NCBI GenBank assembly: GCA_000004985.1
Contig: GG738866.1
DNA from: Naegleria gruberi
Taxonomy: Eukaryota
Length of the DNA stretch: 64,000 nucleotides
Direction: 5' to 3' (one strand)
The notes beneath the pieces were generated by a model. The model searched no databases and was not told the origin of the DNA. It saw only the letters and a list, made by a program, of their open reading frames with translations. Position numbers and translations under genes: made by a program. Positions 1-33,417 of the stretch are shown one piece after another. The first letter of the stretch is position 1. Each line of letters starts with the position of its first letter.

Positions 1-400
1 AACCCAAACCCAAACCCAAACCCAAACCCAAACCCAACCAAACCCAAACCCAAACCCAAACCCAAACCCAAACCCAAACCCAAACCCAAACCCAAACCCA
101 AACCCAAACCCAAACCCAAACCCAAACCCAAACCCAAACCCAAACCCAAACCCAAACCCAAACCCAAACCCAAACCCAAACCCAAACCCAAACCCAAACC
201 CAAACCCAAACCCAAACCCAAACCCAAACCCAAACCCAAACCCAAACCCAAACCCAAACCCAAACCCAAACCCAAACCCAAACCCAAACCCAAACCCAAA
301 CCCAAACCCAAACCCAAACCCAAACCCAAATCCAAACCCAAACCCAAATCCAAACCCAAACCCAAAACCTAAAACTAAAACTAAAAATAGAATTCTTCTA
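1..400. repeat. Terminal telomere-type repeat array (CCCAAA)n, about 65 units, C-rich strand reading 5' to 3' inward, which fits a left chromosome end; degenerate inner edge (CCAAAT, AAAACCT, AAAACT variants from about 330)
   Basis: Direct reading: near-perfect hexamer CCCAAA from base 1; one 1-nt deletion variant near base 38; decay into AAAACCTAAAACTAAAAC at 360-390. Confidence 0.9.
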
Positions 401-955
401 AACCCAACCTTCAAACCCTAGCCCAAAATTATAAACTTATTCAAATATCATTAAATTTTATATCATTCGATTGGAAATGATGAGTAGAACAACGTGGTAT
501 ATTTAGTTTTTCAATTTATAAAATATTAACTTTGTAAATAATGTCAGATTATAATTTGTAAAATGAAACCATAGGAAGAATGATAATTTCAAAATCCTTT
601 AATGAGATTATATAGTCTATATCACCATTAACAACATTCATAATCACTTTCATATAAAATTTCAAAAGTTCATGTCAGTAGGTATAAAAGTATCAAGTGA
701 AAGGGGAAGATGTGAGGTAAAAGAGGTCAACAATAACTTTTGAGTTTCTCATCAAAACATATTATAACCTGATATGAAAATGTTCCATTTGATTAGTAAA
801 CATCGAATATCAAATTTATTTTAACTTTCATATTTAAAGATTTCTTCCCTCAATCACACATGGTCTACTATGATGAAAAGGATGAAATCTTGAAAAAGGA
901 CCACCTATTGAAACTTTACCAAAATGATGTACATGATCTATAATGATATAGAATT

Positions 956-1005
956 NNNNNNNNNNNNNNNNNNNNNNNNNNNNNNNNNNNNNNNNNNNNN
1001 NNNNN
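956..1005. other. Assembly gap (50 N) joining two contigs
   Basis: Run of exactly 50 N, a conventional scaffold-gap size. Confidence 0.95.
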
Positions 1006-1388
1006 AAACCCAAACCCAAACCCAAACCCAAACCCAAACCCAACCCAAACCCAAACCCAAACCCAAACCCAAACCCAAACCCAAACCCAAACCCAAACCC
1101 AAACCCAAACCCAAACCCAAACCCAACCCAAACCCAAACCCAAACCCAAACCCAAACCCAAACCCAAACCCAAACCCAAACCCAAACCCAAACCCAAACC
1201 CAAACCCAAACCCAAACCCAAACCAAAACCCAAACCCAAACCCAAACCCAAACCCAAACCCAAACCCAAACCCAAACCCAAACCCAAACCCAAACCCAAA
1301 CCCAAACCCAAACCCAAACCCAAACCCAAACCCAAACCCAAACCCAAACCCAAACCCAAACCCAAACCCAAACCCAAACCCAAACCCA
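1006..1388. repeat. Second (CCCAAA)n telomere-type array (about 64 units) in the same orientation as the terminal array, ending abruptly at CCCACGACTAAGG
   Basis: Direct reading; occasional variants (CCCAACCCAAA at about 1040 and 1130, CCAAAACCC at about 1222). Confidence 0.9.
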
Positions 1389-2185
1389 CGACTAAGGTCA
1401 GACCCAACATTTTGACTTTTATTCATCTTAATTAATTATCTCAATAAATACTCATTATATATCAATATATTATATATCAATATACTCCAAATTGAATATA
1501 TAATCATAATATTACATAATATTACATCATTATAATGACTTATATAAGTTAATTTCATATAATAAATTAGACAATTAGAATATCAATGTAAAAATTTCAA
1601 AATCATTTCAAATCAATATATCACCTTATAAATCATGTTAATAACAATATATATCAATTTCAAATACTTTGGTATCATTTCAGGATGTTTACTATTCAAC
1701 TTGTCAACTGACCTATTCTAACATTGAAGGTAGAAATATATACCACTCCAATTCACTTCCAATACATATATACATGATAATAAAATATATTAATATCATT
1801 TTGACATTCATCCATATCATACATGGTACATGGCTGATCCACTTGATACCTATAGGGATGTGACAATGACATCTACTATACAGATCATTATGAAATTGAT
1901 ACAGTACCTTACCAATGATGATTTAACACCATAGTATCAGTTTCGTGACAATTTGAAATCATTCAACATGTCAGGAGTGTAATCATGAGAATTATGAATG
2001 TCAAGATAATCAAATCATATTAATTTTCAAATCTTTCAATTACAAGAGCATATATAGATCCATTAATCATGGTATTTCAATAATTGGTATTATATTTCAT
2101 ATCAATTCATTCAAACCTTAATGCCTTAGATGACCAACTCAATTTTAAACTATCATGAATCATATAACTATTGATACCATTGTGT

Positions 2186-2433
2186 NNNNNNNNNNNNNNN
2201 NNNNNNNNNNNNNNNNNNNNNNNNNNNNNNNNNNNNNNNNNNNNNNNNNNNNNNNNNNNNNNNNNNNNNNNNNNNNNNNNNNNNNNNNNNNNNNNNNNNN
2301 NNNNNNNNNNNNNNNNNNNNNNNNNNNNNNNNNNNNNNNNNNNNNNNNNNNNNNNNNNNNNNNNNNNNNNNNNNNNNNNNNNNNNNNNNNNNNNNNNNNN
2401 NNNNNNNNNNNNNNNNNNNNNNNNNNNNNNNNN
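2186..2433. other. Assembly gap (248 N)
   Basis: Run of N. Confidence 0.95.
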
Positions 2434-2559
2434 TCCCTTTATACCATCTAGTCACTGAGTAACATGGATGAAAATCTGGAAAATGACCTCTCTATGAAAC
2501 ACTTCCATCATGTTCACAAACTCAAATAATGTTGTAGAATTCAATTTTAGAGTTTTAAA

Positions 2560-3030
2560 ATGTAATTTGACAATATAGTAAGGTAAAGGTTGATATTTTA
2601 AGGTTGACTTGAAGGATTGAAAGGTGAAAATCAAGATATCAAAAACATCACTCCAGTCAATAAAACACATATGAAAATGTTGCAAATGATGAGTAGACAC
2701 CGAATTTATCATTTATTCTAACTGGAAATATCTCTAATATATACTTGGAAGTCAACTCTCTCTATAATGTACAAGTTGTTCCGCCAAGTTACCACTCTCA
2801 AATTAAATCATATACTCATGCTCTAAATCTCTAATAATATGTATACTTCAGTTTTCAGACGTTCTAGTGAACATTCCATCATATAGTAAGGTAAGGAGTG
2901 ATATATCAAGGTTGACTTTGAAGGATAGGGCAATATTCAATAAGAGAACTACATCCTCAATCTGCAAAATACATATCAATCGATTGTAAATCGATAGTAC
3001 ATCTCGAAAATATCATTTATTTTATGATTT
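2560..3030. repeat. Degenerate subtelomeric tandem repeat, period about 310 bp (unit at 2577-2720 resembles 2887-3030)
   Basis: Shared motif AGTAAGGTAA[A/G]G..TGATAT.T.AAGGTTGACTT(T)GAAGGAT.G...A.ATTCAA...ATCATTTATT at both positions. Confidence 0.5.
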
Positions 3031-3349
3031 GAAATCTCTCCTTGACTTCTTTTAGTCAATTAAGACAATTAAGGATGATACAATAGAAAAAGTTGACAAT
3101 CTCAAAATAAACTTTATTATCATGTAGTACATCTCAAATAAAGTGGACTTTATTCAAATTATATACTTTTATTTCAAGAAATGCATCCAGTAGATAGTAC
3201 TTGGTGATCTGTCATTTGTGGCTAGAAATCTGAAAGGTCCAAAAGCAAGTCTGTTTTCAAAGAAATTGATATAATGACATATAATCACTCTAATTAGTCA
3301 TGTGGTATCAATTTACTGAATACCTTAATGTCTACTCAACTTTTAACAA

Positions 3350-4510
3350 CAAGATGGCACTCCATCTCATCCAATTCAATATATGTATTACAAATATCAT
3401 ATATGAATAGAATCCTGAATCGAATACTCTTGATGCGTAGAACAATCTGAGAAAGTATCATACTCATGACTCAATTCCTCTTGATCATTGTTGTACTTTT
3501 CATTCATGCGTAGATAAAAATAACGTACATTCAAAAATACTCTCAAAAATTCTACGCATCAATATGAATGACAACCAAATTGATTGAATGTAAGTCCGTC
3601 CGCAAAGTGACGCAAAGTAACGGAATATCGAAATCGTTACTACTTTCGAATAGCTTGAAAACAACACATTTACACCACAACTCGATAACTAGATAAGAAC
3701 TATATACTTTTTTTAAAACTTTACTAAAAAAACCAACAAAATACCCAAACGGCGCTTAATAACCCTATATCAGATCATAAAGACCATGGAGCCACAGAAG
3801 AAACAAATCAAAACAACACGTTTCCTGAACCAACTATACCACCATCCATATAAGGACACGATCATCAAAATGAAAAAAACAAACTTCAACATCTTTATGA
3901 AAATGCAAACACATTGCCCCATTCCGATGATTGCACCCAATAATCAAGTTTAAACAGCACGTGGCGAGCCTGATATGTTAACAATTTCAAGAATATAGGC
4001 TCAGTAGATATTGAGATGTCAACTCTATCATTTTACTATAGAACTTTGACATAAAATAAAAGATTATGCTCCAAGTCACTTATTTTATATGCAATTAGTC
4101 TAGAATTGATAATACACATTCTGTACACCATTTATATACATATATACAAGTTTAGAAACAATTCATGATACTTTCATTCAGTCAATCAGTAAATGTTCAA
4201 TGTCAATAGTGCTTATATCCAATTGTACACACTGTCTCAATGAAAGTATATCCAAACATCATGTAACTTTACCAGATAAATTTAGTCACACTGATATACA
4301 TCTGGTATCAATTTTATTGTTTTAGAATTGAATTCAATATGATAATAATAACAATCTGTCCAATTGTCATATTTCAACATATAGAATGAATACCATCTCA
4401 GTCAATTTACAAAATATCATACTAGTATCAAATATGAATACACTTCCCTTGATGAGGAGAACAATCTGAGAAAGTTTTATATTCATGGCTCAATATCTTC
4501 AAGTCAACTA
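3350..4510. repeat. Diverged direct repeat about 1.03 kb apart (3350-3500 resembles 4384-4510)
   Basis: Shared string GAACAATCTGAGAAAGT.T.A.A.TCATG.CTCAAT..CTC preceded by ATATGAATA..CT(C)TTGATG.G.AG at both sites. Confidence 0.5.
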
Positions 4511-5846
4511 AGGAACATCTAAGGTAATCAATAGGGAATAATCTTAATTCCAAAATTAAATTTTACCATCATATCAAAGTCATTGAATAATGAATTAATT
4601 ATACAAGAATAATATATTCAATTGTCATATTCATGTCAGTAATCAGTGAAGGTGACACTTCTTAACCCTTAGTATACACATCTCAATATGTAGACAGTCA
4701 ATTCCACTGAAACTTGAAATATTACCTATCTAGATGATATAATAATGACTCTTCATAGTAAGATGCATGTGAAATTGAGTGTTGACCGTTTTCATCTTGT
4801 TATATTTATAGAGATGGTATCCAACAGAGTCAGTTCACAATATTAAATATTGAAACTCATTCTATAGGACAGATTTGATGTGCGGAACGGTTTTTTATTG
4901 AATGTAATCAGTTTGAAATAATCTGATGAAACTGACACTGTCTAGTCACCATTACATGACGAATAGACCAGAGTTTACATTCCCTCTCAGTCATTTCAAC
5001 GATTTATTGATTAATTCCACCACCATTATGTTTCTCGTACATTGTAGTACAGTTTATATTTCAAGAGTGATTTATGTGTAGATTTTTATAATCGTAATAC
5101 CATTCAATACCAATAAAACTAAATAGAAGAGTTAATTCTTCTCATTTTCAAATAGATTATTAAATATAGAACACATCTAGATAGTTTTTTTTCCAGATCA
5201 CAAAAGTCAAGATACTATATATGGTCTTTGATTAAATTTAAAAATAGACTGCCGTTGATTACTGGAATCTTGATTCAAAGCTTGATGATCAAGCTATTGA
5301 TTGAAATCAAACCGATTATTGAATATTGATCATTGAATTGGTGAATAATCACTTGAATCATGCTACATATTTCAGATTGCATGCAAATCAACCTGATTCA
5401 ATCTACAAAGGTTGGTACCGAAAACTACCATTCCACGATGAATCAACATTAGATTCACTTCCATTCAACTCAATTTGACCATTATAATCAATAAATCAAT
5501 GAAATGTTACTTTATTAGCAATACCTATTCAATCTAATGAGTAGATTCACGTCCCAAACATTTGACTTCTTAAAGTCGATATTTCAAAAGTTGATACTGA
5601 CCTGACCTTTAAATATCTATCAATATAAGAAATGAAACCATCAAATTTACATCATTAATAGATGATAAGAAATATAATCAATGATATAAATCTTCACTAA
5701 GTAATCTCTTAAATAACCCAAATAAATCAACTCTGAATCCACAATTACAAACTCGGAAAGAAATTCTTACAAAAAGAAATATCCTTAAACTTGATTGTAG
5801 TTATTGAACTACACTCAATTTAAATATTAACATGTTTCGCATATAA

Positions 5847-6980
5847 TTAGAAACACTTTCTGTGAACGATACCTGAGCCGGCATCTTCGTATTCCTCTTT
5901 CGTTATCCACATAGATTGAAAGGTCGAAAGTGAGGCAAAGATACTGCCTCCAATCCAGACAGAGTACTTTCTTTCTGGTGGAGCAATAACCGTAATCTTC
6001 ATTAAGGCAGGAGCCATAGCAGTCAATTCCTTGGTCATTCTTTCAGCAATACCTTCGAACATGGTTGTACCACCAGACAAGACAACGTTACCGTACAAGT
6101 CCTTTCTGATATCAATATCGCATTTACCAATTGAGTTGTAAGTAGTTTCATGAACACCAGCAGCTTCCATACCAATGAAGTTTGGTTGGAACAACACTTC
6201 TGGACATCTAAATCTTTCATTACCAACAGTAATGACATTACCATCTGGCAATTCGTATGACTTTTCAACAGATGATGATTCAGCAGCAACCTTCATTTCA
6301 GCTTCAAAGTCCAAAGCAATATAACAGAGCTTTTCCTTAATATCTCTGACAATTTCTCTTTCAGCAGTAGTATTGAATGAATAACCTCTTTCCATCAAAA
6401 TCTTCATCAAATAATCAGTCAAGTCACGACCAGCCAAATCCAATCTTAAAATAGCGTGTGGCAAAGCATAACCTTCATAAATTGGAACAGTGTGGGAAAC
6501 ACCATCACCAGAGTCCAAAACAATACCAGTAGTTCTACCAGAAGCATACAAGGACAAGACAGCTTGAATGGCAACATACATGGCTGGAACTGAGAAAGTT
6601 TCAAACATAATTTGAGTCATCTTTTCTCTATTGGCCTTTGGATTCAAAGGAGCTTCAGTCAACAAGACTGGATGTTCTTCTGGAGCAACTCTCAATTCAT
6701 TGTAGAAAGTGTGATGCCAAATCTTTTCCATATCATCCCAATTGGTAACAATACCATGTTCAATTGGATACTTCAAAGTCAAGATATCTCTCTTAGATTG
6801 AGCTTCATCACCAACATAGGCATCCTTATTACCCATACCAACCATGATTGATTTTTGCTTGGGTCTACCAATAATTGAAGGGAAGACAGCTATTGGAGCA
6901 TCATCACCAGCAAAACCAGCTTTACACATTCCAGAACCGTTGTCAACAACGAGGGCTTGAACGTCTTCACAGAAGGACAT
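5847..6980 (-). CDS. Actin (377 aa, complete, single exon); divergent at several usually invariant positions (for example [14 protein letters not shown] and [10 protein letters not shown])
   Basis: Full-length ORF with unmistakable actin sequence ([17 protein letters not shown]...[17 protein letters not shown]); stop TAA at 5847-5849. Confidence 0.95.
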
Positions 6981-9103: not shown

Positions 9104-9176
9104 CGCCCACCGTGGGGGTCGAACCCACGACCACAAGGTTAAGAGCCTTGCGCTCTACCGACTGAGCTAGACGGGC
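9104..9176 (-). tRNA. tRNA-Lys(CUU): tRNA-Lys (anticodon CUU)
   Basis: Minus-strand sequence GCCCGTCTAGCTCAGTCGGTAGAGCGCAAGGCTCTTAACCTTGTGGTCGTGGGTTCGACCCCCACGGTGGGCG folds as a cloverleaf: 7-bp acceptor stem, D-loop AGCTCAGTCGGTAGAGC, anticodon loop CTCTTAA, T-loop GGTTCGA, 73 nt, no intron. Confidence 0.9.
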
Positions 9177-10364: not shown

Positions 10365-11459
10365 ATGGAAGAACACCAAGCTCTTGTAATTGACAATGGT
10401 TCTGGAATGTGTAAAGCTGGTTTCGCTGGCGAAGATGCTCCTCGTGCTGTTTTTCCTTCATTAATTGGTAGACCAAAACAAAGGTCAATTATGGTTGGAA
10501 TGGGAAATAAGGATGCCTATGTTGGAGATGAAGCCATGTCAAAGAAGGGAATCCTCGCTCTCAAATATCCAATTGAGCACGGAATTATCACAAACTGGGA
10601 TGATATGGAAAAGATTTGGCATCATACTTTCTATAATGAATTGAGAGTTGGTCCTGAAGAGCATGGTGTCTTATTAACTGAGGCTCCATTGAATCCAAAG
10701 GCAAATCGTGAAAAGATGACACAAATTATGTTCGAAACCTTTAGAGTTCCAGCCATGTATGTTGCCATTCAAGCTGTCTTGTCCTTGTATGCTTCTGGAA
10801 GAACCACTGGTATTGTTTTGGATTCAGGAGATGGTGTTTCTCATACTGTTCCAATTTATGAAGGTTATGCTTTACCACATGCCATTTTGAGATTGGATTT
10901 GGCTGGTCGTGACTTGACTGATTATTTGATGAAGATCTTGATGGAACGTGGATACAGTTTCAATACCAGTGCTGAACGTGAAATTGTTAGAGATATTAAG
11001 GAAAAGCTTTGTTATGTTGCATTTGATTTTGAAACTGAAATGAAGAAAGCATCTGACAGTTCATCCATTGATACTTCATATGAATTACCAGATGGTAATG
11101 TTATCACAGTTGGTAACGAAAGATTCAGATGTCCAGAAGTGTTGTTCCAACCAAATTTCATTGGAATGGAAGCTGCTGGTGTTCATGAAACAACTTTCAA
11201 TTCTATTGGAAAGTGTGATATTGACATTAGAAAGGATTTATATGCCAATGTTGTACTTTCAGGCGGTACAACCATGTTTGAAGGAATTGCGGAGAGAATG
11301 AACAAGGAATTGACAGCTATGGCTCCAGCCTCAATGAAGATTACGGTTATTGCTCCACCAGAAAATTTGAAAAATAAATCAAATTCAAACATTTTCTTGA
11401 AATTAGATAGAAGTTTGTTGTTGTTGGAAAGCTCGTTGAATATCTTGACCAACTTTTGA
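10365..11459 (+). CDS. Actin paralog with an aberrant C-terminus (3'-truncated actin copy; possibly a pseudogene or neofunctionalised)
   Basis: Actin homology through residue 324 (…[10 protein letters not shown]), ending at nt 11364. The ORF then continues for 39 unrelated low-complexity codons ([31 protein letters not shown]) instead of the conserved [10 protein letters not shown]…HRKCF tail. No splice donor at the break. Confidence 0.8.
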
Positions 11460-13448: not shown

Positions 13449-16400
13449 ATGCCTGAAATTCTTGGTAGCACCACTGCTTCAAAGCAAGTGCTTGGTTTAA
13501 ACATTTCTCTATTGGTATGTTTCGCTTACTTTCGTTTTATTTATCAGAATCAAATTATCTTCCAACATCTCATTCACTTCTTCACATTCGCATTCAACTC
13601 CAACAATACTCAATAGAAAGGTGGTACTATCAGTCAAACAATTGTAAGTATATTCTCCTCCTCATAAAAACTTATTCTAATCTCAACAAACTATTCTAAT
13701 CTCCTTTTTTATAAACAACACAATTCAATTAATGAACACAGGTTGGTGCCATTATCACTTCTCTAGTGATTGCCTCCACCGTCGCAACCATCGTTCTCGT
13801 AACCACTGGTATTGGTTACTCTCCACCAGTTGCAGAACTTGACGTTGCATCCACATTCAAACGTGTTCCAGTTACAATCGACGTTCTTCACAATGATCGT
13901 GATCCACGTGGTGGTAATTTGACACTCACTCAAATTGTTTCTCCCCCTTCATTTGGTACAGCTCGTATTTTGTCTCAATCAAAGATTGTTTATCAATCGA
14001 GAGGTGCCTTTATGGGTAATGATTCGTTTAGTTATGAAGTTACTAATGGTTATGCTACTGCTAATGCGACTGTCAGAGTGTCAGTTGTCAATAGACCACC
14101 ACAAGCTGTGCCAATTTATAAAAAGATTTCAAAGAATGCGAACAAGGCATTGATTGATATCTTTAATTATATTGGTGATTCAGATGAAAAGATTTTTGAC
14201 ATTGACAATGATGAATTATTGGCAGTTTCATTTGGTGATCAACAAATTATTAGTGGAAATAGTCATATTGTTGGTTCAATTCAAGTTGATCCATATAATG
14301 GTTATTTGTATACTCCTGTTCCTAATTTTAACGGTATTGAAATGTTTAATTATACCATAACTGATGGAAATGACACTGATTCTTCCACAGTGACAGTTGA
14401 AGTTGACAATGATGCTCCAACTGCTGTTGATGATTATTTCAGAACTCCAAAGTATTCTGGTATCAAACTCAATGTTTTAGCCAATGATTATGATATTAAC
14501 AATGATGAAGTTAACATTACAAATGCCATTGGTGCTGGTTACGGAGCTACTCAAGTGTCAGAAAAGTCAATTTATTATTATACATCATCTGTATTGAATA
14601 CCAAGTATACTGATACTTTCGAGTATAGTATTACTGATGGTCAAAAAGAGGCATCAGCTATTGTTTTCATTGAAGTTTACAATAGGTAAGTTTTTAACTA
14701 TTTTTTGTAATTTTATTTAAAACCCATATATAGTGAGCCAATTGTTTATTCTAAAGTTGTTCAAGTTGCCAAGTCAAGTTCTAACAACACTATTACTGTA
14801 GATTATAACGACCCAGATCGTAAGGATTTAGTCACCGTTTCAAGAATTACACCTGTCTTGTCATCACTCAATCCACCTGCCAAATTAATGTTAGCTAAAA
14901 CTTATGAACAAGTCAGATTTGAATGTTGTGATTGGATCAAGGTTGAAACTAACAATTACACCATTGTTTTTGCTCCAACTCCTGGAATTGTTTACACTCA
15001 AACACTTGACATTGTCATGTCAGATGGTGAAAGTGAAGGAAATGGTAGAATTACCATTCAAGTTGTTAATACTCCACCTGTTGCTGTTGATGATCATGCT
15101 GAATGTAACAAGAATCAACAAATTTATGTTAACGTTGCTGCTAATGACTATGATGTCAATGAAGGTGATACTGCTCTTATTCAATTGTCAAATGTCAATT
15201 GGAATTCCAATACTGAACAAGGTGGTTCCATCACTCGTATCAACTCTACTCATGTACTTTATATTCCAAAGAAGAATTTCTTAGGAACTGACATTGCTCA
15301 ATATGTCATTACTGATCAAAGCAAAGACCAAAATGGAAATCCAGATTCCACAAGTTATTCAACTGGTAAATTAATTGTTCAAGTTGTTAATAATCCACCT
15401 ACTCCTGCTGATGATGAATTCACTATTTCTAAGGGTATTTCATCTGTTTTGAATGTTTTAGATAATGATTCTGATCCAAATGATGGATATGGATCTGTTT
15501 CTGTAATTAATTCTGTTAGTACAAGTTCTATTAAGAATATTTTGGCTAGTATTGTTAAGGGTTCTAAGGATATTCTTGAATATCTTGCTGTCAATGAAGA
15601 ATATGTTGATTTCTTGACATATGACGTTACTGATGCTGATGGTATGACATCTACTTATAAGGCAAATGTCAAACTTAATGTTGTCAATGATGCTCCTGTT
15701 GCTGAAAATGATGTCTATGAAACCAAGTGGAATAGATCTGTCTCTTGTTCTGTCAAGGATAATGACAAGGATATTAATGGTGACTTGTCAAAGTCAACAA
15801 TTTCAATTTCTAAAAATCCAACTCATGGTTCTGTTCAAGTTATTGGTGATTTGGTTACTTACACTCCTTACAATGGATTTGTTGGTTCTGATTCCTTCCA
15901 ATATACTCTTAATGATGGTAGCTCTGCAAATGCCGTGTCAAATGCTGCAACTGTCACTGTCAATGTCATTAACAATGCACCTGTCACTCAACAAGATACT
16001 GCCACCACTCACTGGAGAAACACAGATGGTGTCTTTATCAATCCATTATTAAATGACAGTGATCCAGACAATGATGAAATTGTTCTTTCCAGAACTAGCT
16101 CAACAGATGGCACTTCCTCATTGGTTTCTACCACCTTCCTCAAATTTATTCCAAATCAATCAACTCCTTCCACTGGTGATAAACAAGTTTCTTATACAGT
16201 TTCAGATTGGAATAAGGAAAGTGATGGAAAGATTATTGTAACCATTACAAATACTAAACCAATTGCAAGTGATGATCAATATACACTTCACTGGGCTGCT
16301 TCTGCAACTAATTTGAATGTTTTGGAGAATGATGCTGATCCAGATAGTGATCCAATTAGTTTGGGAAATGTCAAGGGTTCAACAGCAGCTGTCAAGAATG

Positions 16401-19400
16401 GAAATTCTGTCAGTTATACTCCAAAGAAGGATGGTAAGCAAGATACTTTCCAATATTCTGCATTTGATAGAGTTGATTACTCTACTGATGCAACTGTCAC
16501 TGTCAGTTTCACAAATAATGACAAGCCAGTTGCTTCTGACGTTTCCACTACTCTTCACTGGAGAGTTTTTGCTTCTCAATCCAATCAACAAGATTTCACA
16601 GTTTATTCCAAACAAACTGATTTCGATGGTGATAGTTTAACCCTATCTGTCACTGAAACTGCCAACTGTGCCAAGACAACTGACAGCATTGCCAAAGTCA
16701 GAGTTAAAGGTCCAAGCAACCAAGTTGGTACCTATTCCTGCTCATTCTCTGTTTCTGATGGCTTAGACACTTCTGGCATTAAAACAGCAAGTGTCAATGT
16801 CTATAATAATGCTCCAACATGTTCTGACATTGTCGTTGCTTTTAATCCACAATTTGTTGAAAGTGGTCAAACTTATTTATTGGGATCTTCTGTTTCTGAT
16901 GCTGATTCTAATGATTTCCCATTCCTTGCCCCAGTTGATCCAGCAGGTACCATTCAAACAGGTGACATTTTCAGAGTGGACTTGTCAGATGCCAAGAAAC
17001 TTTATTTTAAACCTAATACAAATACTGGTGACAGAAATTATCGTTATAAGGTCAGTGATGGAATTTCCAAATCTGCTGAATGTAACTTTAAGATTATTGT
17101 AAACTCTTTGGATTCTGGTGATTACAATCAAGCGTATGATGTTCATTGGAATTCAACAAATTTCCAAGTTCCAATTTTGGCGCCATTTGTTGGTAAGAGT
17201 ATTACTATAAAGAGTAAAAAGACAAATCCATCACAAGGACAAGCAACTGTTGATGCTGATAATCAAAAGGTTTATTTCACTCCTGCAAGAAAGTTGTACG
17301 TTGATAGTTTTGTAGTGGTTGTGACAGATGGCACTTTTGATAATGATGTGACAGTTACATTGTCAACATATAATACTAATCCAACTGCTTCTGTTCCAAC
17401 ACAAACTATGAATTGGGGAACTTCCAAGACCATCAATCTTTTACAAAATTATGCTGACAAGGATATGACAGATGGTTTCGAATCGATTGGTAAAATTAGT
17501 TCAGTTTCTTCTGCTGTTAAGGGAACTGTTTCACTTTCTGGTAATAACGCCATTTACACTGCTCCAGATCTTTACATTGGAAGTGATTCATTTACTGCAA
17601 CTGCCACTGATGGACTTGCCACTGTCACTTTTACTGTCAATATTAATTTAATTAATTCTGCTCCTATTGTTACTAATAAGGATATTTCAATCCATTGGTC
17701 TAAACATGCCGCTGGATATGCTATTGATTTGTCAACTGGTTCTTCAGATCCTGAAAATAATCCATTGACATTTGCTGTCAGCTCTGCAAGTATTTCACCA
17801 TCAAGTGCTGGAACAGTGACATTTAGTTCACCATCCAGTGGTGTTGTAAAGGCTGGCTCTTCTGTCTATCTTGGTAAATTCACATTCTCCTTCTCTGCAA
17901 GTGACAGATTAATTTCAACTCCTGGTTCTGTAGCTGTCACTGTAATTAATGACATGGCCACACCAATTGCTGATTCTGCTAATGTCCATTGGAGACAAAC
18001 TGGTGTAGAATTGAATCCTATCACTAAATATGAACCTACTTTGAAAGATACAGATGGTGATAGTTTGACAATTAGTGCTGTCAAAGCTCAGAAAGGAAGT
18101 GTCACAATTCACACATCAAAGACTGCCATTGTTTACAATGCTCCTTCAAATGCCATTGGACAAGATGTTGTTACTTATAGATTCACTGATGGTGCTCAAT
18201 CCCTTGAAGATTCCAGAACTGTCGTAAATGTCAATTTATATAACAATGCCCCTTCAGCTGTTGCTCAATCAGCTTCAACTAAATGGCATTTACCTGTCCA
18301 AGTTCCATTGACAAGTGCTTGTACAGATACAGATAGTTGGGATTCTAACTTTGTTACATTCAATGGTGCTGTTTCCAATATTATTGGTGGTTCAGTTTCA
18401 GTTTCTAATAGAATCGTCACCTTTACTCCATCCTTAACTCTTGCTCAATACACCAAATCAGGAGATGTTTACACTGGTACTGCCTCTTTCAATTTCCAAT
18501 GTACTGATGGTTTGGCAACAGCTGTCAACCCAGGTGTCGCAACCATCACTGTCACTAATAATGCTCCAACTGGAACAGGCAAATCTGTCACAATTCAAAG
18601 AGATTATACAAGAACTTCATATGATTTTGCATGGACAGACATGGCTACTTACTCAGATATTGATGGAAATTCTGTTTCCTTAATTAAATTCTCATCATCT
18701 GATTCAGCAATTTCAATTTCTACAATTGGAAATACTATTAGATTGACAACTCCAAGAGATGTCAGAGGTGTCAAGATAATTTCATTCAAATTATTTGATG
18801 GACTTCATGAAAGTACTAACGAATTGAAATTTACTGTTGAATTCCTTAATACTGCTCCAGTTTGTAAAGCTGCATCAGTGTCACTTGCCAAGAGACAATC
18901 ATATGACCTGTCACAATTATTCTCAGCAACTGATGTCAATAATGATGTATTGAGACATACTTTGAGTGGTGCTGTTCCAGCTGAATTTGGTTCAACTTCT
19001 GGAACTGTTTTCACAAGTGCTGCCAGTAGAAGTGGTGTGACAAGTGTCAGTTATACCACAACTGATGGACAAGATACAAGCTCACCTTGTGTAATTACCA
19101 TTACTATTACCAATAATGCACCAATCGCTCAAGACGCTGGTTACAGTTTCAAACCAGATCCTGCAAACTTGATTCACACTTTCACATACACTGCTACTGA
19201 TCCTGATGGTGACAGTTTGACATATTCTTCATCCAGTAATAATTGTGTTTCTGGTGCTTTGGCTACTACTCTTTCTATTTCATCATCTGGTGTTATCACT
19301 TTCAATAGAAAATCATCAGCTGTTGCTGGAGTTTGTACCATGTCAGTAACCGTAGTTGACAATAACAATCCAAGTGCTTCTGACACTGCAACTGTTACAT

Positions 19401-20699
19401 TTACCATCACTGCTACTCCACCAACTGCCAGAGATGATAGATTCCAAATTAATCAAGGTCAAACTATCAGAATTTTCACAAGTCAAATTTTGGCAAATGA
19501 CAATGACGAATATGGTTCAGCAACTTCCTTGACATTTGTTTCTTTCGAATGTCCAGCTGGTTACTGCCACAGTACTCCTAGATTAGTCACTTACAATGGT
19601 CAACAAGCTATTGAACTCGACTCTGATCAAAAGACCTGTCAAGCTGACAAATTCAAATACACAATGCGTACTAATTTGGGAGCTGAACGTCAAGCAGATG
19701 TTTTCATTGAATTCAAGAATTGTTACTGTGCTGCCAAGATTGACTTTGTCTTTTTATACGATTCATCTGGTTCCATTGGTGGAACAAACTTTAACAAAAT
19801 GAGAGATTTAGGTAAACGAATTATTGGAAGAATGCAACTTGCTGAAGATGCCATTAAGGTTTCAATTGTAAGATTCCATTCATCAGGTGTTAGAGCATTG
19901 TCTTTAACTTCTAATGGTGCTACTGTTAATAATACTTTTACCTCCATGACTGTAAGTAGTTTTTTAATAATTTTGTAAAGTATTTAATAATTTAATTTAA
20001 CAATACTAGTATGATGCTGGAAATACTGCAACTATTGCTGGTATGAGAATGGCTGTTGATGCTTTGAGACCTGCTAATGGTGGTAGAGCTGATGCTGATA
20101 AGGTTATTTATGGTATGTTTTTTTATTTGAAAACTTTACAATAATTTACAATTTCTTCTTTTATAGTGCTCACTGATGGTCTCGGTAACGTACCATGTAG
20201 TTGTTCTCAATGTGAAACTGAATGGTCATCCACTCCAAGTGTCTATCCAAAAACAGTTCAACAAGACATTCTCAATACTCTCTCAGGAACTTCAAGAACC
20301 AATGCTCTCCGTAATATGTGTGCTTACCAATTCTCTGATTCATCTGTATTGAATGGAAAAACATGTTCCTATTGTAGTGGTGGTAATGCTGCCTATTGTT
20401 TACCATGTGCTGATGCTGTTCCAATTGCCAAGAAGATTAATAGTTGGAAACGTGATGCTAATGGAATTGTTCCAAATGATCCTGATAATCCATATAATGG
20501 TAATAATAGAGTTCAATGGAAGGTTGTTGCTATGGCTGTTGGTAATGCCATGACTGATGTTTGGGGAGCTAGACAAATTCAAGGTATGAATTATGATGCT
20601 AGTAGAGCAATTACAGTCTCTTGGACTGATTTGTCATCTACAATGAGTGAAATTGTCGATCAATCTTGTAATCAAGTCAATGTTGAAACTGCTCAATAA
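13449..20699 (+). CDS. Giant adhesin-like protein (about 2260 aa): N-terminal hydrophobic anchor, about 20 tandem 95-100-aa cadherin/VCBS-like repeats, C-terminal VWA domain and Cys-rich tail
   Basis: Exon structure: exon 13742-14685; intron 14686-14733 (GTAAGT..TAG, contains an in-frame stop); exon 14734-19951; intron 19952-20009; exon 20010-20112; intron 20113-20166 (GTATGT..TAG); exon 20167-20699. A tentative first exon 13449-13514 (MPEILGSTTASKQVLGLNISLL, donor GTATGT) is uncertain. Repeat motifs V.NNAP.A.DD…N.L.ND.D.DGD…YTP..F.G.D.F.Y…DG; VWA signature DFVFLYDSSGSIGG. Confidence 0.8.
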
Positions 20700-26019: not shown

Positions 26020-26865
26020 TTTTTTAATAGGAAGTGGTGTGATTTCTTCATTAGATAACGTTGCTTGTGCTAACGCACAAATTAAGGCGCTCTATTTAGA
26101 ATGTGGGTACTCTTTTTTTCTCAGTAATTGAGAGCCGTAATCAACAGTGCAAACACCAACTGCCATAATGGCTTGTAATGTCGCGCTCAATGGTCGAGTA
26201 TTGTTGTATACATTCAGCATCATCTGAGAACAATAAATTAATATAATATAAAAATAATAATAACAATTACAGGTATTGAGGGAGCCATTAGTATCTCAAT
26301 TATCATTTTCCATTTCATGAAGTTTCACATTATTGTACATTGATAAGTGAGAGTTTACAGTTTGTAAGGAACATGGATTGATCAAAGAATCTTGTGTTCA
26401 GAGTTAAGAACTAGGGATATCGACATAATGGTTTTGCAATACTCTCTCAATGAGCAACACATGTTTGTATTTTCTTATTCTCCACAGGTGAATGTTCCTA
26501 GCAGCCTTGTTCGTCAAATTGGACAATATCAATTATCTCTCGCCCTTATTATTAGACTATAAATTAATTTTTTGAAAATTGTGTTTGAAAAACCGTAAAG
26601 TCAGTTTGATGAACTAAATATTTCTAATAAGCACTTGGAACTTAAGCGTCATAGATCAAAATGACACTCAAACACAAAATTGAAGTAATTTGTCACTGAT
26701 ACTTTGTGACTGGTGATGGGTTGGTTCGGATTAGTTGCATCTTTCGATATGCGCATAACCTATGCTAACTATTTTCTTCCAAACATGCTCATAGTTAAAC
26801 ATGAAGAAACGATTTCATCACATGCAGATGATGGAAGTTATTCGAAATCTAAACAACAAAAAAAT

Positions 26866-29800
26866 ATGAAGTTCGAAAGGTGTAACATGTTGGGACACGC
26901 AAGTCTCGTGTTATTTCATCTCATCACCTTGTTACTACTACTTTCGAATAGTAACAACAAGTTTATTCACGGAGCAGTGTCATGGAAACAACCAGACTAT
27001 CGAATCACCACAGTCAATCCTCTACAAGTATCAACAAATCCTGAAGGTAACAAACTATACGATTTCAAAACAAATGCTCCCTATGCTATTGATTTTGACG
27101 CACAAGATAACATGTACATTCTCGATTATTCAAAGTGGGTCCTAAAGGTCAATACAAGTAGTGGTACTATAAAAACATTAATGGGAGTTGCTGTAGGTAC
27201 AGAATCTGATGTGGATGGTGTTGATGGAACAACAGTACCTGTTGGATACTTTAAAGACATGTCAGTCAATCCAAAGAGTGGTGAAGTTTATCTTGTGGGA
27301 AACATGAAATTGAAGAAAATTAACACCAATGGTAAAATTTCCAACTATAATGTCAATAATTTTGATGTTACCAATATCTATGGAGATGGTGGAATGGCAA
27401 TCAATTCAAAAGTTTCGGATAATGTTGAAAGTGTTACAGTCAATTCGAAAGAAGAAATTATCTTTTCTGATAAGAACAGAATAAGAAAGATTTTTAATAA
27501 TGGCACCATAACCACAGTAGCTGGTACTGGTTCTCCTAGTGACTCACTCATGAACACTCCAAAGGGTGTATGCACCGATTTATCAAATAACATTATCTTT
27601 ATTGATTGGGGAACGAATAGAATTAAGAAAATTTCAGCAATTGATGGATCAATTTCTGTAGTGGCTGGTAAACTTAATCAAGTCGGTACTTTTCCTGCAG
27701 ATAAATCACTTGCCAATAACACAGCCATTACTCCAGTGAGCATTGCAGTGCATCCTGTGAGTGGTGAACTGTATTTTGCAACAATGTATACTATTTCAAA
27801 AATTGGCTCTGATGGATTGATTTACAGAATTGCAGGAAATGGTTCAATTGGAGTGGATAATACTGTACAAGCAGCCACTAATGCCATGCTTTCTTCAATT
27901 ATTCACATTTCTATTGGAAAGAATTCAGTCTTGTACATGATTGATGGTTTTCGTGTGAGACAAATTTCATCCAATGTTATCACCACACTATTAACTGAGA
28001 GTTCAACTTTCCCTCCTAAATTTGTCTATCATTACAACAGTTATGTTTACTATACAGTGTCATGTCAGATATTGAAATTCCCAGACAATAATCCTTCTGT
28101 TGTTACTACCATTCTTGGATTGAGAGGAACTTGTGTTCAATTTTTTGGTGTTAAGAGACAAGTTGATATGACTCAAAATTACCTCTCCTTTGATGCAATG
28201 ACAGCATTCACAATGTCAGCTTCAACAGGAAGAATGTACTTTTCAAATCCAAGAAGAATGTGGAACATTACAGATGGCTACATTTATCCAATGGTTTACA
28301 ATTATGGTGAGAATATTGATATTAAGGATGGTCTCATTGAAAATGACGCCTCGTCTTGCTTTGATAATTCTGGAAATTTAATTCTTGGAGATAATTTTAG
28401 ATTGAGAAAGTTGAATACAACCTCTCATATAGTCAACTCAATTATTGGTAATGAAAGTCCAATGGTGCCATTTGCTTGTACTGTTGCTCCTAATGGAGAC
28501 ATTTACTTTAAAGATAATCAAGCCATTAAGAAATTGGATGCTTCAACCGGTTTGACAACAACTTTAGATACTGTACTAGCAGATCACAGATCCCGCAATT
28601 ACAAAATCAAGTTATTGCCTTCTGGTGCTTTGATTTATACCGATTTACAATATGTCATTGCTTATTACAACAATCAAAAGACTACTATTGCTGGAAGTGT
28701 AGCCACTGGTCCATTTTCTGGAGAGGGTGGAAGGGCTGTTGATGTTGTTCAAAATGCTTTCCTTGTTGGTTTGACTGCTAACAGTAAGGGTGAAATCTTC
28801 TACTCTGACGAGACTGCCTATATCAGAAAATTAACACCATACTGTAGTGATACTTCAACCTATTTGGATTCAACGGGTACTAAATGTTTGGTTTCCTCAT
28901 GTTTTGGAGTTGATTATAATATTAATTCAGTTTGTTCAGGACATGGTAAATGTGTTTCGAATGATGTTTGTAAATGTAATGATGGCTACTCTGGATTAAA
29001 TTGTGAAAAGTTCACATGTTTTGGCTTGAACAATACAGATCCAAAGGTATGCTCAGGAAATGGAACTTGTGTCGATATTGATTACTGTTCATGTACTTCT
29101 GGTTATCAACCAGAATGTAAAGGTTACGTTTGTTTCGGTTATCCAATGGACAATTTTAAGGTCTGCTCCTCTCATGGAAAATGTATTGGCAATGATAAGT
29201 GTGAATGCGACCCAACTTACAATGGAACCAAGTGTGAAAATTACTATTGCTTTGGTTTATCTGCATCTGATCCTAATGTTTGTAATGGAAATGGAAAGTG
29301 TATAGAAACTGACACTTGTTCTTGCTCATTTGGCTTCCAACCAAATTGTTATGCTCACAAATGTTCAGGAAAGGTCTACAATGACTCATCAGTTTGTTCC
29401 TCAAGTGGTAAATGTGTTGCCGAAAATACATGCATATGTACTAATGGTACCAATGGACCTAATTGTGAATTCCTCTCACTCTTATTGGATATCCAAGGAA
29501 GACCAACTCTCAAAACTGTTGCGAGAATATTCACATTGCTAGGTAATCCTGTCGATAATTGTGCCACTATTTTTGCAAGCAAAGAATTGTCCTATCTTGG
29601 AAATGATCCAATTTGTAAATTTTCAGCTAGTGGTCTGGAAATTATTTTGGGATCTGGTTTCTCAATTGATAATGGAACTTTCTTGCCAACTCAATCATTT
29701 GACGGATGGAAGTATGATTTTAGAGTACAGGCTGGATCTGTTTGTGGTAGCTATGCTCAAACTTCCTTAACTCTCGATTTTAGTTCTCAAACAAACTCTT

Positions 29801-32800
29801 TGCAAAATTTGAATTCGGACACCATTTTGAGAATATCTGAAACTGATTATTCTCAATCATTTGGAAGAAGTATTTCATGGACAGGTCCTTCTGATTTAGT
29901 TCCTCTCGTTTCTCCAAATCAAAAGGTTGTGATCATTCCTAAAGGTTATTGGAAACCAGGAAATAATCTCCCTGTTACAGTCTCCACCAAGACTTCTCTG
30001 TGTGGAACCAATTCGAATAGTAGAACATTTACATTCAAGACTGATTCTACCGCTCCATCCATTGACATCATGACAGACACTCCTTCTGGTAAATTGAATT
30101 GTGTGGGTTATGATTGTTTATTTGAATTTTCTCTTTCACCTGCAGGATCATACTCTGCACAGATCAAATTTGATGGAGATTATTCATTGATTACCTCAAT
30201 TTCTTCAATTCCAAATTTACAAATTGCCAGATTATCAAACTATTATGACAGCACCACTTACTTGGGTGTTAAATATTATGGAACGGTCAATTTACAATTG
30301 CTGTTCAATTCAGTTATTTATTCTTCTACATATCCTATGCAGTATTTGGCATATGAAAGCTCTCAATTATTTATTAATAACTTGAACAGAGGTTTTAGAA
30401 AGGATCAATCTGAATTGACCTTTAGTTTGGTTTCTCAAAATCCGTTACTTCTCACGGTCAATCCAGGAGCTCTTCCAATCACTTACAATTGGACCATCTC
30501 AAGCGGAAACAAAATTATTGGACCATTCTATACCAATTCAATCAGTATTCCTAATCCAGGTGTTGGAAATTATTCTCTTTCACTTCAGGTCAATAACAAT
30601 GATGAATTTAGTGAAACCATTACTGGTACCTTCTCTGTTTTTGACACAGTTGGCGCAATTCCAGATGTTTCAGTAGATAGCTTTACCAATCCATATCCTT
30701 TTATCAAGACTCTTGATTTGACAGCTACTGTAAACTCTACAACATCTGTCAGTCAAATTTATTGGAATGTAATTTCAGGTTCCTTCTACAACTCACCTGT
30801 TCTATCAAACTTTGCATTTTCCCAAAATAATATCAAGACAAGTCTATCCATTCCTGTTTCCTATCTCAAGGAGGGTTCTAATTACGTTTTCGAACTCAGA
30901 GTGACCAACTCTGTTGGAACTAATATTCAAAGATTCAATGTAAAGATGGATTACAATCCTCGTTTCACATGTGATTATTTCACCAGCTACAATTCTTCTC
31001 AATTGAAGGTATATGAATCCAAATTGATAATTTCATGTAGTTCTTTTGAAAATAATATGGCATCATATGTCGTTGATTTGTTTGATGGAGATGTAAAGTT
31101 AATGACCTTGTCAAATACTGCTAAGAGTAGTGTTATTGCTAGATTACCTTATTCTTTGAATGCATTATCATTGAATGTGAGAGGAATTAATAGAAATGGA
31201 TCTTACAGAAAGGTTGTAAAATCAATTACTGGTCCTTTCCTTAATTTCCCTTCTTCTGATCTTTCTGCTAGAGTTTCGTATGTTTCCCAGCAATGGACAA
31301 GTGTGAAAGCTGAGAATATCAAGATGGATACTGCTTCCTCTATTTTATCATTATTGACCTATCTTCAAAATGGTAAACAAACATTCGATGATTTATCAGG
31401 ATTGAGTGATTCATCTAAGCAAACCTTGACAACTGTCATGGTTGAAATGATCTCTGCTTTAAAGTCTATTACAACAATTGGTTATCGTGCTGATGATAAG
31501 ATTTCTGCTGTTCTCCTCTCACCTACCCTTAGAGTTGTCAAACTGGTAAAGACCATCCTGCCAACTGTCTACTCCAATCAAAAGTCCGATATTCAATACT
31601 TGACTAGTTTTATTGTAAAGGGTGTTGAATCTGTGACTTCTTATTATTCAGCTAATATGGTCAGAGCATTGGTTGATGGATTAACCTTCAATGAAACTGT
31701 CTCCCTTGTACAAAATGCTTACTCCTCAGCCGCCACTAGTGGATTATTGGGTCAATTGACCAGATTACAACTCATTCTCAAGCCAGATTTTTCACCATTG
31801 AATTCTGTTTCCTATCAATCACCTCAGGAAATAAGTGGTAAAACAATCACATTGGGAGCTTCCATCTCATTCACATTCCCTTCAAACTTTTACTCACAAA
31901 TTTCCTCATCGGTTCCATTTAGTTTGATCAGCTCTCAGGAACAATCCAATTCCGATGCTTCATCAGCTACTGTAAGCATTTCTCTTTTCAAATCCGATGG
32001 TTCAGCATTTAAGGTTCAAGGATTGACAAGCTTTATTGAAATTGTCTTTGCTGACTTGGTTTTCAAGAGCGAAAATGTTAGTTGTGTCTATTTTGATGAA
32101 GTTTCGAATGCTTGGAGTAGGGATGGATTGATTACTACTCTTGTCAAGAAACAAACAGGTGGATTTAATGTCAAATGTGAAACTAATCACTTGACAGCTT
32201 TCTCTGTTGTTGTCAATGATGCAATCACACCAGTTCAACCAACTCAATCGCCAGCAAAGAGTGGCACCACTACTACAACTACTGACAATACATTGGCTAT
32301 TGTTCTGGGTGTGGTCATTCCTTCTGTTGTGATTATTGCAGCAATTGTCACAGTCATCATTGTTGTAGCAATTGTTTGCATGAGAAAGAAGAAGAAAGGA
32401 CAGTCAACAAATCAACCTAAGCTTACCAAACTTGACAGTGTCTATGAACAACCTAACATATCTGCTTATGAACATTCAAAACCTCATGACATTTTGACAG
32501 ATACTGAACTTTCTGTCATGTCTGATTTCCCATCAAACAATAGCATGTTAATCAAACCATTAATGAGTGTTTACACAAGCACTGGTTCAACATCAAGCAC
32601 TTCTTCTAAATTTGATCCAATGTCCAGATATAAGAATCTTGTTAGAATTGGTCAAGGCGGTTTTGGAAGTGTTTTCAAAGCAGAAGATGCCAAGTGTGGA
32701 AATCAACTCAAAGCCCTCAAAGTTATCAAATATTCATCAGTGGAAGAATTGAACAACATTTTGAAGGAAGGAAATCGTTTAATGAACATTTCACATCCAT

Positions 32801-33417
32801 ACATTCTCCATGTGAATGATGTCTTGATTGACTCTGATCAAATCCTATGTATTGATATGGACTATTATGAAAAGGGAGATTTAAATCAATTTGTAAAGGT
32901 TGGTTCTGAATGCCCTGAAAATATTCTCAAACAAATTCTCTATCAAATGTGTAATGCTCTCGATTATGTTCACAACACTTTACAAATTGTTCACAGAGAT
33001 ATCAAACCATCGAATATTTTCATTAAGGAAATGTCTCAAGATAGTATTCATTTGATTTTAGCAGATTTTGGATTGGCTAGACAAACTCAAGGAAGTGTCA
33101 TGTTTTCCTATGCAGGAACTCCATTGTTCATGTCAACTGAGTTAGCTCTCGGTGGTAAATATACTGCCAATACTGATATTTATTCATTGGGTGTGACATT
33201 GTATCAAATTATTACAAAGGATGTAGAAACTTCATTGTCTCACATATCGCTCACTATGGATACAGCCGAATTTGAAAAGACTATTAGAAATAAGATGAAA
33301 CAAGCCAACCCTGCACTTTCGGATGAATTATTGGACATTATTGTGAGCATGTTGAAGAGAGATTATGCCACAAGACCTTATCCAAAGGATATTCTCTCCA
33401 ATTCCTACTTCCAATAA
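26866..33417 (+). CDS. Receptor-like Ser/Thr protein kinase (about 2180 aa): signal peptide, NHL-repeat beta-propeller, tenascin-type EGF repeats, long ectodomain ending in a GPS-like motif, single TM, cytoplasmic kinase
   Basis: Single ORF (track 26713-33417; likely start is the AAAAATATG at 26866, giving the signal peptide MKFERCNMLGHASLVLFHLITLLLLLS). EGF-like Cys spacing CSGHGKCVSNDVCKCNDGYSGLNCE repeated about 6 times; C.YFDE..N.WSRDG…VKCETNHLTAFSVV just before the TM (VVIPSVVIIAAIVTVIIVVAIV); kinase motifs GQGGFGSVF, HRDIKPSN, DFGLAR. Confidence 0.85.
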   Translation: MKFERCNMLGHASLVLFHLITLLLLLSNSNNKFIHGAVSWKQPDYRITTVNPLQVSTNPEGNKLYDFKTNAPYAIDFDAQDNMYILDYSKWVLKVNTSSGTIKTLMGVAVGTESDVDGVDGTTVPVGYFKDMSVNPKSGEVYLVGNMKLKKINTNGKISNYNVNNFDVTNIYGDGGMAINSKVSDNVESVTVNSKEEIIFSDKNRIRKIFNNGTITTVAGTGSPSDSLMNTPKGVCTDLSNNIIFIDWGTNRIKKISAIDGSISVVAGKLNQVGTFPADKSLANNTAITPVSIAVHPVSGELYFATMYTISKIGSDGLIYRIAGNGSIGVDNTVQAATNAMLSSIIHISIGKNSVLYMIDGFRVRQISSNVITTLLTESSTFPPKFVYHYNSYVYYTVSCQILKFPDNNPSVVTTILGLRGTCVQFFGVKRQVDMTQNYLSFDAMTAFTMSASTGRMYFSNPRRMWNITDGYIYPMVYNYGENIDIKDGLIENDASSCFDNSGNLILGDNFRLRKLNTTSHIVNSIIGNESPMVPFACTVAPNGDIYFKDNQAIKKLDASTGLTTTLDTVLADHRSRNYKIKLLPSGALIYTDLQYVIAYYNNQKTTIAGSVATGPFSGEGGRAVDVVQNAFLVGLTANSKGEIFYSDETAYIRKLTPYCSDTSTYLDSTGTKCLVSSCFGVDYNINSVCSGHGKCVSNDVCKCNDGYSGLNCEKFTCFGLNNTDPKVCSGNGTCVDIDYCSCTSGYQPECKGYVCFGYPMDNFKVCSSHGKCIGNDKCECDPTYNGTKCENYYCFGLSASDPNVCNGNGKCIETDTCSCSFGFQPNCYAHKCSGKVYNDSSVCSSSGKCVAENTCICTNGTNGPNCEFLSLLLDIQGRPTLKTVARIFTLLGNPVDNCATIFASKELSYLGNDPICKFSASGLEIILGSGFSIDNGTFLPTQSFDGWKYDFRVQAGSVCGSYAQTSLTLDFSSQTNSLQNLNSDTILRISETDYSQSFGRSISWTGPSDLVPLVSPNQKVVIIPKGYWKPGNNLPVTVSTKTSLCGTNSNSRTFTFKTDSTAPSIDIMTDTPSGKLNCVGYDCLFEFSLSPAGSYSAQIKFDGDYSLITSISSIPNLQIARLSNYYDSTTYLGVKYYGTVNLQLLFNSVIYSSTYPMQYLAYESSQLFINNLNRGFRKDQSELTFSLVSQNPLLLTVNPGALPITYNWTISSGNKIIGPFYTNSISIPNPGVGNYSLSLQVNNNDEFSETITGTFSVFDTVGAIPDVSVDSFTNPYPFIKTLDLTATVNSTTSVSQIYWNVISGSFYNSPVLSNFAFSQNNIKTSLSIPVSYLKEGSNYVFELRVTNSVGTNIQRFNVKMDYNPRFTCDYFTSYNSSQLKVYESKLIISCSSFENNMASYVVDLFDGDVKLMTLSNTAKSSVIARLPYSLNALSLNVRGINRNGSYRKVVKSITGPFLNFPSSDLSARVSYVSQQWTSVKAENIKMDTASSILSLLTYLQNGKQTFDDLSGLSDSSKQTLTTVMVEMISALKSITTIGYRADDKISAVLLSPTLRVVKLVKTILPTVYSNQKSDIQYLTSFIVKGVESVTSYYSANMVRALVDGLTFNETVSLVQNAYSSAATSGLLGQLTRLQLILKPDFSPLNSVSYQSPQEISGKTITLGASISFTFPSNFYSQISSSVPFSLISSQEQSNSDASSATVSISLFKSDGSAFKVQGLTSFIEIVFADLVFKSENVSCVYFDEVSNAWSRDGLITTLVKKQTGGFNVKCETNHLTAFSVVVNDAITPVQPTQSPAKSGTTTTTTDNTLAIVLGVVIPSVVIIAAIVTVIIVVAIVCMRKKKKGQSTNQPKLTKLDSVYEQPNISAYEHSKPHDILTDTELSVMSDFPSNNSMLIKPLMSVYTSTGSTSSTSSKFDPMSRYKNLVRIGQGGFGSVFKAEDAKCGNQLKALKVIKYSSVEELNNILKEGNRLMNISHPYILHVNDVLIDSDQILCIDMDYYEKGDLNQFVKVGSECPENILKQILYQMCNALDYVHNTLQIVHRDIKPSNIFIKEMSQDSIHLILADFGLARQTQGSVMFSYAGTPLFMSTELALGGKYTANTDIYSLGVTLYQIITKDVETSLSHISLTMDTAEFEKTIRNKMKQANPALSDELLDIIVSMLKRDYATRPYPKDILSNSYFQ

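Follow-up and report, generated by a model that had tools for sequence, protein, structure and literature searches.

Telomere repeats lying between blocks of subtelomeric DNA have several precedents. In yeast, Y' subtelomeric elements stand in tandem with internal TG1-3 tracts between them, and in human chromosomes degenerate (TTAGGG)n is found at the boundaries of subtelomeric duplicons. To our knowledge, the internal telomeric tracts described so far are short, degenerate, or both. As for the repeat unit, the telomeres of Paramecium are a mixture of TTGGGG and TTTGGG. Genome assembly offers a further precedent: in a 2010 article in Genome Biology, Kelley and Salzberg reportedly described false duplications in draft scaffolds, where contigs of alternative haplotypes are set side by side across a gap. 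For Naegleria gruberi, TTTGGG was given as the candidate telomere repeat by a database scan, which found arrays at scaffold ends (Fulneckova 2013, PMC3622300). The motif itself is already known. That study and the present one have the organism, the hexamer and the detection at scaffold ends in common, and in both of them the terminal location comes from sequence. The earlier study named the motif only, while the present one describes, at a single end, two junctions, a family of telomere-associated sequence (TAS) and a repeat of about 305 bp.

The window analysed here, 64 kb (64,000 nucleotides) in length, is the left start of a Sanger scaffold of N. gruberi NEG-M, whose assembly (ACER00000000) consists of 1977 contigs in 784 scaffolds (PMC6831594). 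For the species, Nanopore reads were produced in a study of 6mA (PMC12695648). Runs of N in the window are contig joins, and 956-1005 and 2186-2433 are the only gaps in the 64 kb. The second gap went unmentioned in the sequence-only reading made of this DNA before. Two small contigs are thus set ahead of the main one. Contig 1 (1-955) is read-sized, 955 bp, and holds array 1 plus 555 nt, with 40% of its length being telomere repeat. Contig 2 (1006-2185) is also read-sized, 1180 bp, and holds array 2 and a further 797 nt. Contig 3, the main one, begins at 2434, and neither small contig has a sequence join to the main scaffold. The features of this end are as follows.

1..366, plus strand: telomere array 1, (CCCAAA)n, which opens the scaffold and contig 1 on the 5' side.
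367..428, plus strand: junction of array 1, a gradient of degenerate telomere-like units (CCTAAAA, CTAAAA, ACCCAAC, AAACCCTAGCCCAAAA), from reading of the sequence and unit parse.
429..955, plus strand: TAS1, the rest of contig 1, non-coding, from local alignment, BLAST and identity to the external contig described below.
956..1005, no strand: scaffold gap separating the two small contigs, a run of 50 N with no joining sequence evidence.
1006..1388, plus strand: telomere array 2, (CCCAAA)n, its first base being the first base of contig 2.
1389..2185, plus strand: TAS2, the rest of contig 2, non-coding, from local alignment, BLAST and junction alignment.
2186..2433, no strand: second scaffold gap, an N run of 248 N, between contig 2 and the main scaffold.
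2434..2942, plus strand: distal part of contig 3, degenerate subtelomeric repeat units of about 305 bp, from self-BLAST and block identities.
2943..4110, plus strand: proximal subtelomeric DNA common to the window and to the TAS1-type end of the external contig, from block identities.

The two arrays are very much alike. With TRF, array 1 has a period of 6, 61.3 copies, 97% matches and a score of 704, and array 2 a period of 6, 64.2 copies, 98% matches and a score of 745. Array 1 reads (TTTGGG)n on the strand whose 3' side points to the end. A unit-by-unit parse counts 56 canonical units in it, and the stretch 43-330 is perfect; past 330 the array degrades stepwise (TCCAAA, CCCAAAA, CCTAAAA, CTAAAA) and leaves telomere-like remnants until about 428. 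Array 2 consists of 60 canonical units and three one-base variants (at 1039, 1122 and 1223), all three in its distal two-thirds. Its proximal junction is abrupt: 26 perfect units (1229-1384) adjoin it with no degenerate transition zone, and the last CCCA is followed directly by CGACTAAGG, or in a longer reading by CGACTAAGGTCAG; the junction string quoted in the sequence-only reading, ending in CCCACGACTAAGGTCAG, is found at 1385-1401. The arrays, the 50-N gap and the abrupt junction were thus all confirmed where that reading had placed them, by TRF, the N runs and the sequence. The arrays are not chance products, because CCCAAACCC is confined to them, with 113 occurrences in the two arrays and 0 in the other 62.6 kb of the window; its reverse-complement form GGGTTTGGG is absent from the plus strand of the window. 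No CCCCAA unit appears in the parse of either array. Both are long tandem arrays of a short G/T-rich unit, as terminal arrays of the telomerase type are. In both the C-rich strand runs 5' to 3' on the plus strand, which is the polarity expected at a left chromosome end, so that the G-rich strand runs 5' to 3' toward the end, and both are located at the end of a sequenced molecule, array 1 at base 1 of the window and array 2 at base 1 of contig 2. The view that the window marks a chromosome terminus holds, with a real array in the correct polarity at its left end. The lengths of the arrays, 366 and 383 bp, are probably similar through read length and not through biology.

Is there then a telomere inside a telomere? 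The internal placing of array 2 comes from the scaffold order only and not from sequence, for on its distal side lies the 50-N gap, and zero bases of unique DNA are attached there. The explanation that we prefer, at a probability of about 0.78, is that the double telomere represents two alternative telomere-bearing end pieces which the scaffolder placed serially, in other words an ordinary telomere plus an assembly artefact. Both (CCCAAA)n blocks would be terminal TTTGGG arrays made by telomerase, each heading its own read-length contig with its own TAS member. The two termini might be those of the two homologues of a heterozygous diploid, as Naegleria has been described (PMC9928731), or one of them might be a paralogous end with a near-identical proximal subtelomere. 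One version of the end (version A) would be array 2, 1389-2185, the gap and 2434-2942, and the other (version B) would be array 1, 401-955 and about 400 nt unassembled here, both entering the same proximal sequence from about 2943. We infer that the clone mate pairs of both small contigs pointed into this common proximal sequence, just as we infer the allelic or paralogous nature of the versions. Pieces so dissimilar could not have been overlapped, and the scaffolder would have set them in series with a placeholder gap, which would produce the apparent internal telomere. The artefact is favoured because each array lies at a contig edge with no distal read-through, and because the window has no gaps other than those bounding these read-sized contigs.

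What is the DNA between the two arrays? It had been taken as 550 bp of unique DNA, and this does not hold: it is a diverged member of the TAS family of 1445-1666 and of the repeats of about 305 bp at 2434-3141. TAS1 at 430-656 matches TAS2 at 1445-1666 with 65% identity by BLAST, or in 70.7% of ungapped columns by local alignment. The local alignment score of TAS1 and TAS2 is 42, against 21+-3 in 300 dinucleotide shuffles (z 6.8), and the best score elsewhere, among 300 other pieces of the window, is 29. The tail of TAS1 (772-955) is one copy of the subtelomeric repeat of about 305 bp. By BLAST, 772-826 is 80% identical to 2669-2723 and 846-955 is 67% identical to 2434-2541, and the matches of contig 1 to contig 3 are collinear once the period of about 305 bp is allowed for. 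In contig 3 the period is seen from self-BLAST, in which 2481-2837 resembles 2786-3141 (65% over 368 nt), being too diverged for TRF. Further copies are found in the contig 1 tail (772-955) and in the external contig (1650-2130). The resemblance begins beside the telomere itself. In a three-way alignment the stretch 367-428 aligns with the junction of contig 2 and with a telomere relic in the external contig, and ACCCAAC serves as a landmark (contig 1, 402-408; contig 2, 1409-1415). Across the junctions this ACCCAAC aligns together with the final telomere units that precede it, and the arrays are at homologous positions. On these alignments, contig 1 on the one hand and contig 2 with the head of contig 3 on the other are two diverged, collinear copies of one telomere-associated architecture, at about 65-70% identity. 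This gives a first view of a Naegleria TAS family, with a conserved start beside the array followed by degenerate repeats of about 305 bp.

The homologous positions of the arrays bear on the possibility that array 2 is a healed break. In that case a terminal deletion in part of the culture would have left a breakpoint at 1388, to which telomerase added array 2 de novo, while intact copies would reach out to TAS1 and array 1. The abruptness of the junction at 1388 and the 26 perfect units next to it, with no degenerate transition, are what such an addition would look like. The intact copies, however, would carry unique DNA distal to 1388 that would assemble with 1389 onward, and the contig enters 383 bp of repeats instead; the unique continuation that unbroken copies should retain is not among the assembled sequences. 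What is more, the place of array 2 corresponds to those of array 1 and of the external relic, so that it is the native telomere site of the family and not a random break. We regard a healed break as extremely improbable.

A coding or RNA role was considered for 401-955 and 1389-5846 and was rejected. There is no ORF of at least 70 aa in either interval outside gaps, no reading frame is conserved between the window and the external contig, and no Rfam family is matched from 1389 up to the actin gene that comes first. The external contig holds no tRNA gene. Another, dispersed subtelomeric repeat is also present in this region, with 3336-3589 resembling 4367-4599 at 63%.

The natural continuation of TAS1-type DNA beyond 955 is seen in another genome. 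A 31-mer from 899-929 was scanned against metagenome contigs and gave a single match, the contig VFQN01031297.1 of NCBI assembly GCA_006365155.1 (2627 bp), which is the external contig of this text, a single contig from a genome different from NEG-M. Its positions 1196-1725 are 92% identical to window 424-955, reaching the last base of contig 1. Beyond the position equivalent to 955 it runs on (CAATTTCACGTCC...) for about 900 nt without one telomere unit. In this continuation the identity to the window is about 70% for 2559-2926, 90% for 2943-3218, 80-83% for 3219-3322 and 93.5% for 3973-4110, while window 3323-3972 is missing. The external contig thus passes from TAS1-type distal DNA through about 400 nt to the proximal sequence that is seen past 2942 in the window, and TAS1-type DNA is linked there to 2943-3218 and 3973-4110 (90-93%) in one contig. 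Because its continuation rises to 90-93.5% identity with proximal window DNA, the TAS1-type distal DNA may be read as an alternative to 1389-2942. The repeat units of 2434-2942, at about 70% to the external continuation of TAS1, are peculiar to this version of the end. Judged from sequence, TAS1 with about 400 nt, and array 2 with TAS2, the gap and 2434-2942, look like two versions of the end, each distal to one and the same proximal sequence. The artefact is favoured also because the natural sequence after 955 is, in the external contig, not a telomere.

From its 90-93% identity to a non-coding subtelomere of N. gruberi, the assembly GCA_006365155.1 would include a close Naegleria relative. 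Scans of genome and viral contigs with a 29-mer of TAS1 gave 0 matches, and a protein search with a chance ORF of the external contig, made for more TAS copies, returned that contig alone. Look-ups of exact proteins encoded in the window, meant to reach other ends or independent assemblies of N. gruberi, gave 0 records. Some smaller observations belong here. The stretch 3323-3972, missing from the external contig through an insertion/deletion difference between the genomes, contains one copy of the dispersed repeat, and positions 1-76 of the external contig are 82-87% identical to window 4447-4522 and 3429-3473, again the dispersed repeat. At the end of contig 1, 898-955 and external 1668-1725 share 58 identical bases in a row against a background of 92%, which is probably a coincidence. 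Contig 1 stops at ...GAATT where the external contig reads GAATTC. A vector or EcoRI-site cause of the contig 1 end was rejected, since TAGAATTCAATTT recurs at 2537-2550 and is part of the repeat unit.

Could contig 1 instead come from an unrelated chromosome end? In such plain mis-scaffolding it would have been linked through telomere-repeat or low-quality mates, with no common proximal sequence. Contig 1 is indeed read-sized and 40% telomere repeat, and telomere repeats are common to all ends and can misguide linking. But the external contig ties TAS1-type DNA to 2943-3218 and 3973-4110 at 90-93%, so that TAS1 has this proximal sequence, or a very near copy of it, as its natural neighbour, and the locus is not unrelated. 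An unrelated origin is therefore very doubtful; it also merges into the preferred explanation of two alternative ends, whose paralogous-end variant is similar.

The external contig tells something about the distal side too. Where the NEG-M contigs bear long arrays, it has a relic of 2.5 units, AACCAAACCCAAACC, at about 1143-1159, and AACCAAACCC at about 1107 is part of the same short telomere relic (about 1100-1215). Distal to the relic are 1.1 kb with no window match, plus the 76 nt resembling 4447-4522, so that there is non-telomeric DNA on both sides in contiguous sequence, as in a true interstitial tract. On this sequence the external contig, from a close relative of N. gruberi, carries a telomere-associated module that now lies internally, and modules of this kind do turn internal in the lineage. 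These points count against a mere artefact in NEG-M: the external contig differs distally, with a 2.5-unit relic and other DNA in place of a long array, and it provides an example of telomere-bounded TAS modules turning internal in the lineage.

They also lend some weight to the possibility that the tandem is genuine. The order at this end would be telomere, TAS1, a gap that may be far longer than 50 nt, a long interstitial (CCCAAA)n and TAS2, and it would have arisen when an existing end captured a telomere-plus-TAS module or gained a duplicate of one, in the manner of the tandem Y' elements of yeast. The scaffolder did choose this arrangement of the contigs, in order and in orientation; the homologous modules TAS1 and TAS2 each have telomere repeats at their head, and in the external contig the TAS1 module is internal, behind the relic and 1.1 kb of other DNA. 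Yet no unique DNA has been read into the distal side of array 2, which begins at the contig edge; contig 1 ends at 955 with no telomere repeat, and its external homologue goes on for about 900 nt with none. Over its 383 bp array 2 keeps a purity of 98%, between flanks that are 65-70% alike, and a long-standing interstitial tract would be expected to show decay, like the external relic. If the event was recent, an extra and collapsed duplicate of the proximal DNA and a hidden larger gap would be required. An interstitial tract is expected to have non-telomeric DNA on both sides in contiguous sequence and a purity that has decayed in keeping with the age of the flanking duplication, and array 2 shows neither. 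Both arrays are taken as terminal because they are 97-98% pure though their flanks diverged to 65-70%, which is expected only under continual resynthesis at an end. This purity suggests that both are maintained by telomerase, and hence terminal. We consider a genuine tandem unlikely, and equally it is unlikely that NEG-M carries a near-perfect interstitial TTTGGG array of at least 383 bp between diverged TAS modules as a recently captured or duplicated unit. If such an array were true, the external relic would record an earlier event of this kind, since decayed, and recurrent end-capture would be a way in which Naegleria subtelomeres grow.

Compared with the known systems, the modules of this end are like the yeast Y' elements and human duplicons in that telomere repeats stand at the head of each, all in one orientation, and the external relic, 2.5 units between two subtelomeric blocks, looks just so. 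Array 2 is unlike the internal tracts of yeast and human, for it is 383 bp long, 98% pure and has no sequenced distal flank. The locus also resembles the false duplications of draft scaffolds. Two diverged versions of a locus stand in the same orientation with an N run between them, in a Sanger assembly of a heterozygous diploid, and at least one of them is in a very small, read-sized contig, as is seen here with contigs of 955 bp and 1180 bp. The difference from the ordinary alleles of such cases is that the versions here are 65-70% alike, so they may be paralogous ends.

The sequence-only reading had left two options, an interstitial array or healed-break structure flanking a 550-bp element, and a scaffolding artefact joining two telomere-bearing contigs. 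The second is the one that the evidence favours, while the first loses ground, with no distal read-through, with array 2 as pure as a terminal array despite flanks at 65-70%, and with the external contig passing 955 without telomere repeats. Its further view, that the inner array defines the true telomere-subtelomere junction, is not established, as contig 2 is itself cut off from the main scaffold by the 248-N gap; each of the two junctions has the look of a genuine passage from telomere to subtelomere, belonging to one of two alternative ends. At least two TAS versions would then run into one proximal DNA, and the relative has an internalised copy with a telomere relic. For users of the N. 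gruberi reference, 1006-1388 should not be taken as an internal telomere tract, and 1-955 is best handled as a separate alternative end. No long-standing question is opened by this, and the value is mainly practical, with a small biological gain.

There is a further question of whether TTTGGG might point to a ciliate of the Paramecium type. The hexamer and the AT-rich DNA of the window (34% GC) are like Paramecium. Unlike in Paramecium, the standard code gives long ORFs here, the proteins are those of N. gruberi, and the arrays have no CCCCAA. The ciliate reading was rejected on the first two of these grounds. Read with the standard code, the window has dense, long stop-to-stop ORFs of up to 2235 aa, and the domains found in them include actin, Sec23/24, a receptor kinase and a receptor-type cyclase. 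In a protein search, the Sec24 ORF is 100% identical to an N. gruberi predicted protein, 74% to N. fowleri and 63% to Willaertia. The same search gave no Sec24 orthologue at the level of 90-93% identity, and given this the coverage of the relative's genome in GCA_006365155.1 seems partial. The genes nearest to the telomere are the following.

5847-6980, minus strand: actin, the first gene from the telomere.
9104-9176, minus strand: tRNA gene between the two actins.
10365-11459, plus strand: second actin gene.

The two actins are inverted relative to each other, 4.5-10 kb from the telomere, and have 997 nt in common at 85%. In the second one homology is lost after ...APPE, and coding for the 10-residue sequence was not found within 570 nt downstream; this gene (10365-11459) looks like a 3'-truncated paralogue. 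Farther in, 13736-19975 on the plus strand is occupied by very large ORFs of 317 and 1755 aa, which use adjacent frames; a frameshift or an intron may lie at about 14690-14710. These ORFs start with VWA and contain many bacterial Ig-like (Big_9) and cadherin-like repeats, an unusual domain set for a eukaryotic gene. Two other large genes are each a single uninterrupted ORF, a 2235-aa receptor kinase with EGF/teneurin-like repeats at 26710-33414 on the plus strand, and a 1391-aa receptor-type adenylate/guanylate cyclase with periplasmic-binding-protein domains at 51660-55832 on the minus strand.
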